Below are positions 1,571 through 3,888 of a stretch of DNA of 23,893 nucleotides, one piece after another (within the stretch, counting starts at the first letter, position 1; the number at the start of each line of letters is the position of its first letter). This DNA comes from Candidatus Nanohaloarchaea archaeon (GTDB lineage Archaea > Nanohalarchaeota > Nanosalinia > Nanosalinales > Nanosalinaceae). The notes under the pieces are model-generated. The model saw only the letters and a program-made list of their open reading frames with translations, ran no database searches and was not told the origin of the DNA. The stretch is taken from positions 1 through 23,893 of the forward strand of contig JBEQBC010000010.1 in the NCBI GenBank assembly GCA_041640035.1, in the 5' to 3' direction. A program made the translations under genes and the position numbers.

Positions 1571-2128
1571 CTAACTCAGTTTCTCATTCAGTAACTGGAA
1601 GGTTTCTGTAGCATCTTCTTCATCTATCACAAGGTGTGTGTCTTCCCGGCATGAGATCACTTCTGTCAAGTTGATTTCTCTACCTGCCAGTATCGAAAGA
1701 ACATAGGCAAGTACGCCAGGAGTTTTTTCCAGGCTGTTCGGGCTTTTCAGGGTTACAACTACCTGATCTTCAAGTGTTTCTCCGCGGCATTCCTCGGATG
1801 ATTTCATCACTGCTGTATATCCGTTTTCAGTCTTCGCGTATATCTCGGATTTCTCTTCTTCCTGTGTTTTACAGATTTTCATGTTGCTTTTCAGTTCTAC
1901 TGCTGTCTCTCCTAGAACCTCTGTGATGTTTGCCTGTCTCTTCTTTCTGCCTTTCTGGATTTCCTCTTTGTGCCGTCGCAAAGCCATTTTGACTGCTTCG
2001 AATCCTCCGGCGGTCTCTGGTTCTATTTTTCTGGCGAGAGCTGAGTAGTTTACGATTTCCTGTGAAAGCGCTTCCTGGATGTAAGGTCGCTTCTCCACAT
2101 AGTTCTCGACTTCTTCCTGTACAGACAT
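1571..2128 (-). CDS. ACT-domain protein with N-terminal HTH-like segment (putative amino-acid-sensing regulator, DUF7523-like)
   Basis: N-terminal EALSQEIVNYSALARKI...AVKMALRR and C-terminal ACT motif TPGVLAYVLSILAGREINLTEVISCREDTHLVI, both typical of this archaeal family. Confidence 0.85.
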   Translation of the reverse strand: MSVQEEVENYVEKRPYIQEALSQEIVNYSALARKIEPETAGGFEAVKMALRRHKEEIQKGRKKRQANITEVLGETAVELKSNMKICKTQEEEKSEIYAKTENGYTAVMKSSEECRGETLEDQVVVTLKSPNSLEKTPGVLAYVLSILAGREINLTEVISCREDTHLVIDEEDATETFQLLNEKLS

Positions 2129-2145
2129 ATATTTTACCTATTTGG

Positions 2146-2200
2146 AACAGAGTTTTTTATTTCTGTTATAGAAGTAACTGAATCTATAAATAGTGTTCAG
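2146..2200. promoter_or_regulatory. Divergent promoter region with inverted repeats around the AT-rich boxes
   Basis: AACAGA-N10-TCTGTT (2146-2167) brackets the minus-strand AT-rich box. CTGAA...TTCAG (2178-2200) brackets TATAAATA (2185-2192) on the plus strand. Confidence 0.55.
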
Positions 2201-2234
2201 AATAAAGAGTAGTAACACAAGGTGACACAATCAC

Positions 2235-2279
2235 ATGACAGACTCAACTTCAACACAAGGTGGACACGAAAGACTCTAA
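2235..2279 (+). CDS. Leader micro-ORF A, MTDSTSTQGGHERL (14 aa)
   Basis: ATG at 2235, preceded by archaeal SD GGTGA (2221-2225) at 9-nt spacing and downstream of the TATA box. TAA stop at 2277. Confidence 0.5.
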   Translation: MTDSTSTQGGHERL

Positions 2280-2316
2280 CCAAAACCTAGAACAGGGTGG
2301 ATACGAAAGGAACTGA
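2260..2316 (+). CDS. Leader micro-ORF B, (M/V)DTKDSNQNLEQGGYERN (18 aa)
   Basis: GTG at 2260 in the +1 frame relative to ORF A; TGA at 2314. It repeats the QGG[H/Y]ER C-terminus of ORF A and the VDTK N-terminus of the downstream gene. Confidence 0.35.
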   Translation: MDTKDSNQNLEQGGYERN

Positions 2317-2971
2317 GATAGAAGAAGTAACGATAGAAGCCGGACACGCATACCTCGAAAAACTGAAAAACGGCGAACAAATACCTCCGCCCAACCCGGA
2401 AACAGTTCAGGCTGCCCAAGAATTCCTCCACGACCATGGAGTAGAGACCAGCTTGATAGCCATACTGGACGATACCCACAGCTCAGTACAGGGAATAGAT
2501 GAGGGTCAGAAACAGGAGCTTGCCGAAGAGTACATTTCTACCTGGGAGATACAGCCGGACTCATATCACTGGGAGAGCGAAGCCATAGATGTCTGGAACC
2601 AGGAATGGAACCAGTACCTAGATCTGAACAATGCAGTAGATGAAGCAGATAGTAAATGGTGCAGCCTCACATGTGCCGCACTGGACGCAGCGATGACTGC
2701 TGAAAAACTCGGTATAACAGATCAAACCAGTATCCCATCCGCTGACGCAGCTGTAACCCAGCACGATGAGAACTATCCGCTTCCATCAGGATACAGCAGC
2801 TTCCATAACTATGACAACCAGGAGGAGTCACATCACCTGCAGCAGAACCTCTATGAGGACGGATTAATGCCGGTTCCTACTTTCCAGGATCAGTACAACC
2901 TGGAGTTCAACCCTGAACAGGTCAGTAACGGTGAGCTCGAGGAAGATCTCTATCAGGAGGTGATCTCATGA
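2297..2971 (+). CDS. Hypothetical protein, probable HUP/class I aminoacyl-tRNA-synthetase-like catalytic domain (SCO2522-like)
   Basis: Ordered motifs IEAGHAY, LIAILDD, DSYHWES and TCAALDAA..EKLG resemble the class I aaRS Rossmann core and the SCO2522 family as I recall it. No anticodon-binding domain. ATGA overlap with the next gene. The ORF is solid; the function is tentative. Confidence 0.6.
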   Translation: MDTKGTEIEEVTIEAGHAYLEKLKNGEQIPPPNPETVQAAQEFLHDHGVETSLIAILDDTHSSVQGIDEGQKQELAEEYISTWEIQPDSYHWESEAIDVWNQEWNQYLDLNNAVDEADSKWCSLTCAALDAAMTAEKLGITDQTSIPSADAAVTQHDENYPLPSGYSSFHNYDNQEESHHLQQNLYEDGLMPVPTFQDQYNLEFNPEQVSNGELEEDLYQEVIS

Positions 2972-3888
2972 AGGGCACTCTCGGTGAGGGCAGTACCCCA
3001 CTGGTGAAAAGCAGTGGGAAAGATCAGCTGTACTACAAGAACGAAGCCATAAACCCTACAGGGAGTTTCAAGGACCGTGGAACCGCGAAGATAGTTGATG
3101 AAGCACTGCAGCAAGGTGTTGAGAAACTGCATATCTGCTCGTCCGGAAACGCAGCACTATCTCTTTCAGTGTACTGCCAGAAAGCAGGTCTGGAATCTGT
3201 CTGCCATGTGCCGGAGTCAACTTCAGAAAGCAAGAAACAGTTGATGAAGGCGTTCGGCGCCACACTGAAACAGTACGATGCGATCTACGAGGAGATATTC
3301 CACGGCCTCGAGGAAAAGGACCTAGAGGGATGGAATGTAACGCCTGGCGCCTCGGATACCTCGCTAGAAGCTTACAAAGCTATTGCGGAGGAAATCCTGG
3401 ACTCGGGAATCGAGCCTGATCAGGTTGTGGTTCCGTGTGGGAACGGTACCAATCTGGCGGGTATCTGGAAAGGCTTCAAAGAGAATGGTGTTCATCCTGA
3501 GATGATCGGTGTCCAGATAGAAGGAGCCGCACCGATCAAGCAAGCGATTCAAAAGGAAAAACAACATGGAGTAGTTGGAAATCCTGGTAACAGCGTAGCT
3601 GAAGGCATCATCGCCTCTGAGTCATTCAACTGTGGAGAAGCAGTGAAGGCAATCCAGGAATCAAACGGCTCCCTTGAAACAGTTACGGAAGAACAAATCC
3701 AGAAGGGAATGAATGATCTGGTGGAAGATGGAATCATCTGTGAACCTACATCTGCAGTTGCCAAGCCTGTAGCGGACAAGTTCGTAGGCGAAACCGTCGC
3801 AGTGATCACAGGATCCGGTCTTAAATCCTATAGCAAGATCAAAGAAATGGTTCTTGAAACCCGAAATGAGATAGCTGTAGATACCTAG
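2968..3888 (+). CDS. thrC: Threonine synthase-family PLP-dependent enzyme (fold type II)
   Basis: LGEGSTPL, NPTGSFKDRG (PLP Lys), SSGNAA, VPCGNG, EPTSA and ITGSGLK motifs. Strong SD GGAGGTGA upstream and ATGA coupling. The true substrate is not established. Confidence 0.85.
   Translation: MKGTLGEGSTPLVKSSGKDQLYYKNEAINPTGSFKDRGTAKIVDEALQQGVEKLHICSSGNAALSLSVYCQKAGLESVCHVPESTSESKKQLMKAFGATLKQYDAIYEEIFHGLEEKDLEGWNVTPGASDTSLEAYKAIAEEILDSGIEPDQVVVPCGNGTNLAGIWKGFKENGVHPEMIGVQIEGAAPIKQAIQKEKQHGVVGNPGNSVAEGIIASESFNCGEAVKAIQESNGSLETVTEEQIQKGMNDLVEDGIICEPTSAVAKPVADKFVGETVAVITGSGLKSYSKIKEMVLETRNEIAVDT

Follow-up and report, generated by a model that had tools for sequence, protein, structure and literature searches.

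Aminoacyl-tRNA synthetase (aaRS) and salvage genes need to be induced on starvation. In bacterial leader-peptide attenuation (his, thr, trp, pheST) a leader open reading frame (ORF) carries the codon or codons of the operon's own amino acid, the speed of the ribosome reports charged tRNA, and the targets are aaRS and biosynthetic genes, whilst the T-box, a structured and untranslated bacterial RNA of about 200 nucleotides (nt), binds tRNA, with one specifier codon per leader matched to the downstream gene and with paralogous leaders differing mainly in that codon. How archaea match the expression of their aaRS and amino-acid genes to amino-acid supply is to our knowledge largely unknown, and we know of no T-boxes or classical attenuators amongst them. 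Here we describe a leader in a 23,893-nt stretch of DNA from a Candidatus Nanohaloarchaea archaeon (contig JBEQBC010000010.1; hereafter the whole stretch is called the window), in which two short overlapping reading frames, ORF A and ORF B, precede a gene of 224 amino acids (aa), together with the family of archaeal leaders to which it belongs.

A ribosome that waits for aminoacyl-tRNA may also change frame. According to PMC5009743, the tRNA in the peptidyl (P) site slips +1 in Ty1 and in starved Escherichia coli whilst an arginine (AGG) or other codon awaits scarce aminoacyl-tRNA, and the same text knows of no hungry-codon shifting that yields functional trans-frame proteins on starvation. 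Amongst specifier-codon leaders, a family which is widespread in this archaeal order and apparently undescribed, the cascade in the window represents the arginine type with two units; Creative Commons-licensed PMC papers and bioRxiv, the literature covered, yielded no description of such archaeal leaders. The specifier codon very probably lets the ribosome sense charged tRNA, judging by the match between codon and cargo set out below.

The doubled leader of the window

The sequence-only reading of this stretch had proposed a staggered cascade of short ORFs as a candidate element of translational control or recoding, and direct reading of the sequence found the promoter, the Shine–Dalgarno (SD) sequence, ORF A, ORF B, the main GTG and an in-frame TAG (2288) exactly at the positions that it had named (Table 1). 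ORF A, the upstream ORF (uORF) of the cascade, decodes the first unit as G-G-H-E-R. The GTG inside that unit (2260) is the start of the +1 frame, in which ORF B leads in frame onto the second unit, and the GTG inside the second unit (2297) opens the frame of the main gene. The two repeat copies (2255-2272 and 2292-2309) are 89% identical and stand 37 nt apart, and the stops of ORF A and ORF B each begin 17 nt past the next GTG; both the period and the placing of the stops had been claimed and were confirmed. The repeat unit resembles the SD of ORF A, and the 11-mer AACACAAGGTG, present both at 2214 in that SD region and at 2252 in the first copy, makes a partial third copy. The 14-mer GGTGGAYACGAAAG, with up to two mismatches, occurs at 2 places in the window where 0.20 are expected, a count reached in 1 of 100 shuffles, and has no further places in the 978,572-base, 24-contig genome G000. 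Tandem Repeats Finder reported nothing on the window because there are just two, diverged, copies.

The contigs of run X1 that are identical to the window carry no indel across 2214-2316, and two relatives from two runs of another study, X2 record 8 (covering 2015-2331, 22 changes) and X3 record 16 (covering 2184-2562, 16 changes), differ from it by substitutions without a single gap. Since these independent contigs run over the leader gap-free, assembly error, for which the earlier reading had wanted a check, is excluded. Substitutions of relatives in the second unit fall at unit positions 5 and 9 (2300 G>A and 2304 C>T). A divergent relative, run X1 record 3, has 77 nt at 2228-2304 swapped for 76 other letters. 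Amongst the sequencing runs listed for the locus there is none of RNA.

A specifier codon that matches the downstream gene

The unit has a common formula. Within a well-started short ORF, an SD-like GGUGR is followed by four nucleotides (NYRY), by a shift-prone codon (GAA, UUU, GUU or CCC) at what we call the P position, and by one specifier codon. The GUG within the unit opens, in the +1 frame, either the gene itself or a short ORF that ends in a stop over the ATG of the gene. A scan of genome G000 required GGTGRNYRY, an ATG in frame with it, a frame-0 ORF that is short and a +1 ORF of 20 aa or more, and left the P codon and the next codon unfixed. Seventeen of 238 sites were kept and 11 of the 17 had UUU, GUU or GUC as the P codon. 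Nine of these 11 lie upstream of the aaRS whose amino acid the next codon encodes, all nine aaRS scoring above the NCBIfam cut-offs. The pairs of P and specifier codons in G000 are UUU-ACC before thrS, GUU-CAC (two units) before hisS, UUU-GUA before valS, UUU-GGA before glyS, GUC-CCU and GUU-CCA before proS, UUU-UGG (two units) before trpS and UUU-AAG before lysS, to which a relaxed scan added AGUGAUCGU-UUU-UGU before cysS. A codon of the regulating amino acid, the mark of a leader attenuator, stands in the leader ORF for Thr, His, Val, Gly, Pro, Trp, Lys, Cys and Arg. The chance of finding the right codon at one fixed position in nine or ten leaders is negligible, and from these comparative data we take it as established that this codon is a specifier read in the frame of the uORF.

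The match holds beyond G000. Of 30 glyS loci fetched, 24 had their start placed, and in family f1 a UUU-GGA leader stands at 23 of these 24, both codons having been free in the scan. Leaders precede thrS in 22 of 30 loci of the same family, with a specifier that is always ACC or ACU and a P codon that is UUU in 15 and CCU or CCC in 7; the remaining 8 loci have no uORF. The stop of the +1 ORF falls between -13 and +5 nt from the aaRS ATG in 15/15 thrS and 23/23 glyS leaders, mostly as ATGA, and this placement indicates that the +1 ORF is translated. The proline and histidine cascades of G000 have periods of 100 and 91 nt, both 3n+1.

Lysine-type units, GGT-GRN-YRY-TTT-AAR (G-G/E-R/C-F-K), were found at 28 places in 26 of 70 genomes against 5 in the control; of the 26 places read, 22 have an in-frame ATG 2-18 codons upstream and 4 are chance matches. 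Their cargo comprises lysS (NF001756, 591 and 632 bits, cut-off 468), diaminopimelate epimerase (dapF), ArgE/DapE deacylase and S-Me-THD-like proteins, and at 10 loci a +1 ORF of 26-41 codons ends in a stop that overlaps the lysS ATG. A looser lysine pattern, GNNNRNYRYTTTAAR, was drowned by chance matches, its five GATG variants all lying inside ordinary genes.

Arginine-type leaders in other genomes and metagenomes

A metagenome scan returned four loci with cargo, of which L007, L008 and L010 hold the whole cascade and L009 begins inside it. The first uORFs read MNAQTSTKGGYERL in L007 and L008, MKTEDAISGGYERL in L010, MAQPGKQKGGYERL in L014 and MQSQTTVSESHLQKGGCERL in L027, and the second ORFs of the metagenome loci read VDMKDSENQLESSTDGGYERK and VGTKDSENLEFSKGGC, each of these peptides being followed by a stop. 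The copies are spaced by 46 nt (L007 and L008), 40 nt (L010) and an inferred 43 nt (L009), compared with 37 nt in the window, so that all periods are 3n+1 despite the indels. This period is kept in 7/7 complete two-copy arginine leaders; together with the proline and histidine cascades this upholds the earlier suggestion that it is functional. The cascade design persists down to 47% identity of the cargo protein (L010), with indels that preserve the frame. Such conservation across loci also bears out the claim of an element of translational control or recoding, as opposed to noise. In-frame ATGs lie 2-22 codons upstream of 25/25 first or single arginine units.

The two short ORFs are conserved unevenly. 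The uORF has no conserved N-terminal part (MNAQTSTK, MKTEDAIS, MQLGTK and others); the ORF B peptide KDSENxLE is kept through synonymous changes (AAC/AAT, CTA/TTA) in the window, L007 and L010. ORF B begins with VDTKDS, which is the N-terminus of argG in relatives (G001, G007, G024 and others start VDTKDSIDYLAKPSN), and is therefore a retained 5' end of argG.

Amongst the 70 genomes, GGTGGNYAYGAAAGACTCT with at most one mismatch occurs at 13 places in 11 genomes, compared with 1 place for the reversed control, and GGTGRNYRYGAAAGR at 39 places in 27 genomes, compared with 14. Of the latter, 38 were read, one at a contig edge being left unread: 27 are leaders and 11 are chance matches inside genes or ambiguous. 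In 13 genomes a single unit stands 5' of argG, with a divergent DUF7523-ACT gene, a promoter and an SD plus ATG uORF (e.g. MEQNIISAQKGGYERL...), and argG follows in the +1 frame starting VDTKDSIDYLAKPSN..., then argH and argS (assigned by Pfam). In all, 15 of the 16 argG genes of the 70 genomes have such a uORF, 13 with the AGR unit and two (G046 and G050) with a variant, G(C/T)GATT(A/G)C-GTT-CGA, in which arginine is kept through CGA; G034 has a plain SD-ATG start. A search for more CGA-type arginine leaders in genus g28 gave chance matches only. The conserved codon is thus that of arginine and the regulon argG, argH and argS, and the uORF N-terminus is not conserved; the likeness of ORF A to a Thr/Ser-rich attenuator, seen in the sequence-only reading, is not supported.

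Other arginine leaders have different cargo, usually ending in argS. L014, L027 and L028 have two units each, with a small ORF, an unknown gene and an M20 deacylase as cargo; in L025 two unknown proteins of 318 aa each have their own unit; and G023 has a variant arginine leader with a TTG 3 nt upstream in place of the GUG. L041 and L042 (G027 C67 and G013 C1) show a possible minimal unit, ATG TTT AAC GGT GGC TAT GAA AGG (MFNGGYER...), which has a +1 ORF of only 9 codons and lies beside the start of a divergent gene. Viral contigs gave 0 matches to the motif.

How the unit may be coupled to the cargo

The architecture of these leaders, their conservation, the codon–cargo match and the lack of RNA structure (see below) are established. 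For the step that couples the unit to its cargo, a +1 frameshift at the hungry specifier codon is the likeliest reading, at about even odds. A ribosome would start at the ATG of the short ORF and read the unit GGUGR-NYRY-GAA-AGR in frame. With Arg-tRNA plentiful it would decode the arginine codon and terminate a few codons on, the cargo staying silent; with Arg-tRNA scarce the aminoacyl (A) site would be empty on AGA or AGG and the peptidyl-tRNA would slip +1 from GAA onto AAA, a move that base-pairing between the upstream GGUGR and the 3' end of 16S rRNA would favour, and translation would continue in the +1 frame. In the window two slips (2268-2273 and 2305-2310) would be needed to enter the 224-aa gene, the pyridoxal-phosphate (PLP) enzyme gene would then be translated via ATGA coupling, and the divergent DUF7523-ACT protein would probably add transcriptional control. 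As it is the waiting ribosome that would slip, the switch would have the correct direction, on at starvation, without any RNA structure.

Several features accord with a slip. The layout is that of a programmed frameshift, with an SD and ATG (2235), a stop at 2277 and +1 ORFs from 2260 and 2297, and is the same in all tabulated leaders. The P codon is fixed at the nucleotide level (UUU in 23/23 glyS leaders), nearly always has equal second and third bases (UUU, GUU, GAA, CCC). Which P codon is used goes with the specifier's first base: UUU stands before A, G and U, and GUU or GUC before C. The G2 of GGUGR, a 5-bp complement of the 16S 3' end (...CACC), lies 8 nt from the P codon, compared with a peak of 10-11 nt at real starts. 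In G046, where the GUG is GCG, the argG frame has no ATG, GTG or TTG before the conserved P-loop VVLLYSGGLDTS. Many uORFs start only two codons ahead of the unit, some 27 nt downstream of a TATA-like box, apparently on leaderless mRNAs, which would leave a single site of ribosome entry.

A number of observations weigh against a frameshift, or against the strength of the evidence for it. The GUG is kept in about 100 units bar one or two (GCG in G046; the TTG 3 nt upstream in G023), and its role as a start cannot be separated in silico from a role in the SD-like GGUG core. Four-fold sites in the YRY triplet are constrained in both frames, the third base being Y in +1 codon 2 (11/11) and in the uORF CGN (8/8), which may mean that +1 codons 2 and 3 are translated. 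The SD-like spacing is just 2-3 nt below the natural optimum; re-pairing is imperfect by standard pairing rules, GAA-A, UUU-N, GUU-C and CCC-A allowing two or three of three pairs (GAA to AAA being mismatched at the first base) and GUC-C and CCU-A pairing poorly; and two serial shifts multiply the inefficiency. AGA is the commonest arginine codon (50%, in 350 long ORFs) and tRNA-Arg(UCU) is present, so slowness at the specifier must stem from starvation and not from rarity. Two GUU-CUG (leucine) leaders of G000 precede genes of no family or a class-I glutamine amidotransferase, not leuS. Part of the arginine and lysine counts is circular, since those patterns already held the codon; the G000, glyS and argG-neighbour counts are not. 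Finally, cellular archaeal genes are not known to include a demonstrated +1 frameshift (PMC8211752).

Alternative couplings

The main alternative, to which we attach clearly less than even probability, keeps the same sensor and has the +1 ORF initiate at its own GUG, gated by the overlapping uORF, either through re-initiation 8 nt upstream after stalling or drop-off at the hungry specifier or through codon-dependent relief of uORF occlusion. It would account for a GUG that is invariant in nearly all units and for +1 residues 2 and 3 that form a coherent set of small and aliphatic residues (D/N/G/A/T/S, then T/A/M/V/I), as well as for G023, which keeps a +1-frame TTG though its GGUG is lost; gene callers and 18 homologues agree on M/V-D-T-K-G, and termination-reinitiation clearly operates one step on, via ATGA. 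On the other hand, the GUG lies 8 nt upstream of the P site of a ribosome stalled on the specifier and is covered by it, so that occlusion by itself would turn the gene down when the amino acid runs short, which is the wrong direction. No SD serves the GUG itself, and uORF stops lie anywhere from 8 to 59 nt past it without conservation, so that classical termination-reinitiation does not fit the step from uORF to GUG. Initiation at the GUG also leaves unexplained why the base before it is always G, why the P codons form their particular set and partition with the first base of the specifier, and how argG of G046 starts.

The sequence-only reading had offered three mechanisms: a re-initiation relay, stop-codon-associated +1 shifts and metabolite-sensing arrest peptides. 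The +1 shift is the one we favour, although without its dependence on the stop, and the relay survives in the last step, where the stop of an ORF lies over the next ATG, but not between uORF and GUG. Shifts triggered by the stop codon, of the prfB or antizyme type, or a pure termination-reinitiation relay from ORF A through ORF B to the gene, seem very unlikely to us. The regular stops of the two-copy arginine leaders do look like such a design, the first uORF stopping right after ERL (CTC TAA/TGA) at +17 from the GTG in 6/7 and both window stops lying at +17, yet uORF stops in single-unit leaders range from +20 to +59 without conservation and those of the 13 single-unit argG leaders lie 20-47 nt past the GTG, off the motif. 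The ORF B stop varies likewise (+8 in L010, +20 in L014 and L027, +26 in L028, +35 in L009), and in L009 the conserved VETVVHE would be replaced if the shift took place at the stop. It is the sense pair GAA-AGR that is conserved.

No RNA structure was found. The leader of the window has a minimum free energy of -12.3 kcal/mol (z +0.90), 170 of 200 shuffles folding as well; the Alifold consensus is about 0 for 6 arginine and 10 lysine leaders, with z scores mostly positive; and the same folding found no terminator or antiterminator hairpins 3' of the regulatory codons. An Rfam scan of 1900-2700 at E<=10 gave one chance-level match to a long non-coding RNA and no T-box. An ermC-like pairing of the leader with the lysS SD was dropped because there is no conserved structure.

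These results bear on a further alternative, that the 15-mer is a DNA or RNA operator for a protein such as DUF7523-ACT, or a T-box-like site of tRNA binding, for which translation of the uORF would not be needed. Conservation at the nucleotide level exceeds that of either reading frame, a putative regulator is encoded beside the arginine and lysine leaders and the unit covers the GUG, all of which an operator would explain. Every leader, however, has an in-frame ATG, either preceded by an SD or at a leaderless 5' end, and periods are 3n+1 throughout, whereas spacings of 37, 40, 43 and 46 nt do not keep the helical phase of DNA. The leaders are unstructured and lack an Rfam T-box match. In G000 most aaRS leaders (Thr, Gly, Val, Cys and others) lack a neighbouring DUF7523 gene, and as that genome has one DUF7523 gene and ten leader types, a protein operator is not the common mechanism. 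We consider an operator of this kind to have very little probability.

It is highly improbable that the uORF encodes an arrest peptide (G-G/E/D-Y/C/H/R-F/V/E-X) like the fungal arginine attenuator peptide, TnaC or SpeFL, with the ribosome stalling on top of the GUG at high levels of the free amino acid. A short conserved C-terminal pattern and the right direction, repression at high supply, speak for it; the varying residue, though, is the amino acid itself, and its codon tracks the cargo for 10 amino acids. Codons are fixed in spite of synonyms (GAA never GAG, UUU never UUC), Y, C, H and R at one position are chemically incoherent, and the nascent chain is just 6 residues long in lysine, threonine, glycine and cysteine leaders, the uORF N-terminal part being 2-22 codons long and unconserved. 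The metabolite-sensing peptide of the earlier reading is accordingly not supported, since it is the codon and not a ligand that tracks the cargo. The last alternative, that a tandem duplication of the argG 5' end left a relic without function or that the assembly is at fault, is hardly credible, for although ORF B clearly derives from the argG N-terminus (VDTKDS), the arrangement survives at 47% cargo identity (L010) with frame-preserving indels, independent contigs have no indels there and the design recurs for other amino acids.

Promoter, SD and A-rich box

The counterpart of GTTCAGAAT in relatives (L007, L008, L026 and L030) is a perfect palindrome, GTTCAGAAC, directly 3' of the TATA box; position 2203 is T in the window and C in variants of runs X1-X5. 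The block TATATAGTGTTCAGAAC is kept in L007, L008, L026, L030 and L014. The palindrome is likely an operator, at present putative, for the DUF7523-ACT protein that is encoded divergently. The SD of ORF A matches, as its complement, the 16S 3' end ...GGATCACCTCC, and L007 and L008 have an identical SD and spacing; a 16S 3' end of ...GGAUCACCUCC was found in 3 of 4 relatives, the fourth extraction not ending there. A scan for bacterial promoters and terminators was uninformative on this archaeal DNA.

The A-rich box between ORF A and the second unit is a recurrent leader element at the nucleotide level. As YNAAAAYCT it is present in arginine, lysine, cysteine, glycine, histidine, proline and leucine leaders in differing reading frames, and in the form YNAAAAYCT(N)TCTA it was seen 20-70 nt 3' of the unit (G000 C1:242404 region, L092, L095, L132 and others). 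At the thrS loci without a uORF the position of the box reads like a B recognition element and TATA box (CAAAACCTAATTAATAAT), about 27 nt 5' of the ATG. Given this resemblance the box may be an internal promoter for basal aaRS expression. It was rejected as a peptide motif, because it stands in different frames, and as a pairing partner of the unit, because arginine units have no complementary run.

Genes of the locus and other cargo

Table 1. Positions of the leader elements and adjoining genes in the window.
Feature	Positions	Strand	Description
DUF7523 + ACT-domain protein	1571..2128	-	185 aa; Pfam PF24367 1.2e-10, ACT_7 1.2e-5
Promoter	2185..2203	+	TATA-like TATAAATA 2185-2192, then GTTCAGAAT 2195-2203
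SD of ORF A	2219..2225	+	AAGGTGA, 9 nt 5' of ATG
ORF A (uORF A)	2235..2279	+	ATG 2235, TAA 2277-2279; 14 codons, frame 0; MTDSTSTQGGHERL, then stop
Unit 1	2259..2273	+	SD-like GGTGG 2259-2263, spacer ACAC, P-position GAA 2268-2270, specifier Arg AGA 2271-2273
ORF B	2260..2316	+	GTG 2260, TGA 2314-2316; 18 codons, frame +1; VDTKDSNQNLEQGGYERN, then stop
A-rich box	2280..2293	+	CCAAAACCTAGAAC, recurrent nucleotide-level leader element
Unit 2	2296..2310	+	GGTGG, spacer ATAC, GAA 2305-2307, specifier Arg AGG 2308-2310
Cargo gene 1	2297..2971	+	GTG start, 224 aa, Rossmann-like fold, in-frame TAG 2288 upstream
Cargo gene 2	2968..3888	+	PLP-dependent enzyme, threonine-synthase-like group; PF00291 1.3e-58

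By its domains the divergent DUF7523-ACT protein is a candidate for a transcription regulator of the locus that binds an amino acid. The 70 genomes contain DUF7523 genes at 25 places, in 23 genomes, 21 of the 25 lying within about 2 kb of an arginine-type leader and the other 4 being longer paralogues that adjoin lysine-type leaders; G000 has a single one.

In the window the doubled arginine leader stands before the 224-aa gene and the PLP-enzyme gene. The 224-aa protein matched no Pfam or NCBIfam family. It has 18 homologues of 46-90% identity among 124 candidates, all 18 keeping the N-terminus M/V-D-T/A-K-G/E/D. Its structural model (pLDDT 80) has ArgRS 3fnr as the best Foldseek match (E 4e-3, none at E<=0.001), and the predicted fold is weakly similar to the catalytic domains of class I aaRS. 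In samples of the phylum (61 and 70 genomes) the protein was found only in G000 and G052 (31-34% identity), apart from one weak partial match, and two scans of genome contigs for it found no relative; the distant homologue in G052 is without a leader. With the gene in just 2-3 sample genomes, close relatives there yielded no leaders. The best NCBIfam matches of the second cargo protein are threonine synthase models, all below their cut-offs, and its ATG overlaps the stop of the first cargo gene (ATGA, 2968-2971). The same gene pair lies beside argS in L008, L010 and G052 (L011), so the operon in the window is arginine-linked. In G000 argS lies elsewhere in the genome, with a plain start, and argG was not found in this 89%-complete assembly. 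The pair may be a novel route to arginine or to an arginine precursor.

Cargo at other loci is also worth recording. A GNAT acetyltransferase, an M20 or AstE/AspA-type deacylase and an MR/MLE-family enzyme recur before trpS, hisS and some argS genes (L099, G000 C2:58757-63515; L093, G000 C6:11264-15763; L027; L028), a set that suggests salvage of N-acyl or D-amino acids co-regulated with the aaRS. The GUU-CUG leaders of G000, L096 (C1:215910-220409) and L097 (C1:237708-242207), have as cargo no-family proteins (576 and 633 aa) and a glutamine amidotransferase of class I, and may mark leucine-linked functions or exceptions to the codon rule. The proline operon of G000 (L098, C1:201148-205747) contains two proS-like genes with a gene of the formate/nitrite-transporter family between them, one encoding a 401-aa bacterial-type protein (proS_fam_II in two stretches) and the other a 454-aa archaeal-type protein. 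At the second histidine unit of L093 and at the lysine locus L064 (G046 C6) the first cargo is a protein of 86-92 aa with a segment ...RGRI(T/V)IPA..., which we take to recall AbrB/SpoVT-type DNA binders. A glyS match at G067:C7:532881-533481 is broken by TGA codons (3 and 1 in its two pieces) and could be a pseudogene, an assembly error or a case of recoding.

Implications and comparison with known systems

We put it at an even chance that this archaeal order runs a ribosome-based counterpart of the T-box regulon, in which operons for at least 10 amino acids are switched on via a +1 frameshift at a hungry specifier codon. An element of about 15 nt with a start codon appears to do the matching to supply for these amino acids, its specificity being readable from one codon, and stacked units, as in the window, could, if this is true, give a steeper response. 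Hungry-codon frameshifting would then have its first natural regulatory use, and cellular archaeal genes their first demonstrated case of +1 recoding. A +1 slip as the coupling step would close a gap that PMC5009743 names in the recoding literature, no functional use of hungry-codon frameshifting being known, and would offer a portable, programmable amino-acid sensor. Annotation is affected too, since the short ORFs go unnoticed, the N-termini assigned to cargo proteins may be wrong, and argG of G046 and genes like it would be labelled as pseudogenes.

Compared with bacterial attenuation, these leaders have one codon and not a run, lack terminator and antiterminator hairpins and sit in an archaeal host, and the ORF that gives the output begins within the leader ORF, in the +1 frame and 11 nt before the regulatory codon. 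In contrast to the tRNA-binding RNA of the T-box, they are unstructured and would be read by a ribosome from an ATG. The prfB (RF2) site is alike in its well-started short frame-0 ORF, its +1 product, an SD-like element 5' of the shift codon and a slow A-site codon whose decoding reports the regulated factor; that codon is a stop in prfB and reports release factor, whereas here it is a sense codon (AGR, AAR, ACY and others) reporting aminoacyl-tRNA, the SD-like spacing is less compressed, the family spans many genes and at least 10 amino acids, and units can be serial. The +1 site of Ty1 depends on a constitutively rare tRNA and gives a fixed ratio; the AGA specifier, which makes up 50% of the arginine codons, is not of that kind, and a shift at it would be conditional and regulatory. 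Termination-reinitiation coupling of overlapping archaeal and bacterial genes is alike at the last step (ATGA, TGATG, GTGA) in threonine, glycine, lysine, cysteine, leucine and proline leaders, and the overlap at 2968-2971 in the window is also of this kind, but the step from uORF to GUG, with a stop 8-59 nt past the start, is not. The leader family thus shares its logic with attenuation and T-boxes and its layout with the RF2 site, and lacks defining features of each.

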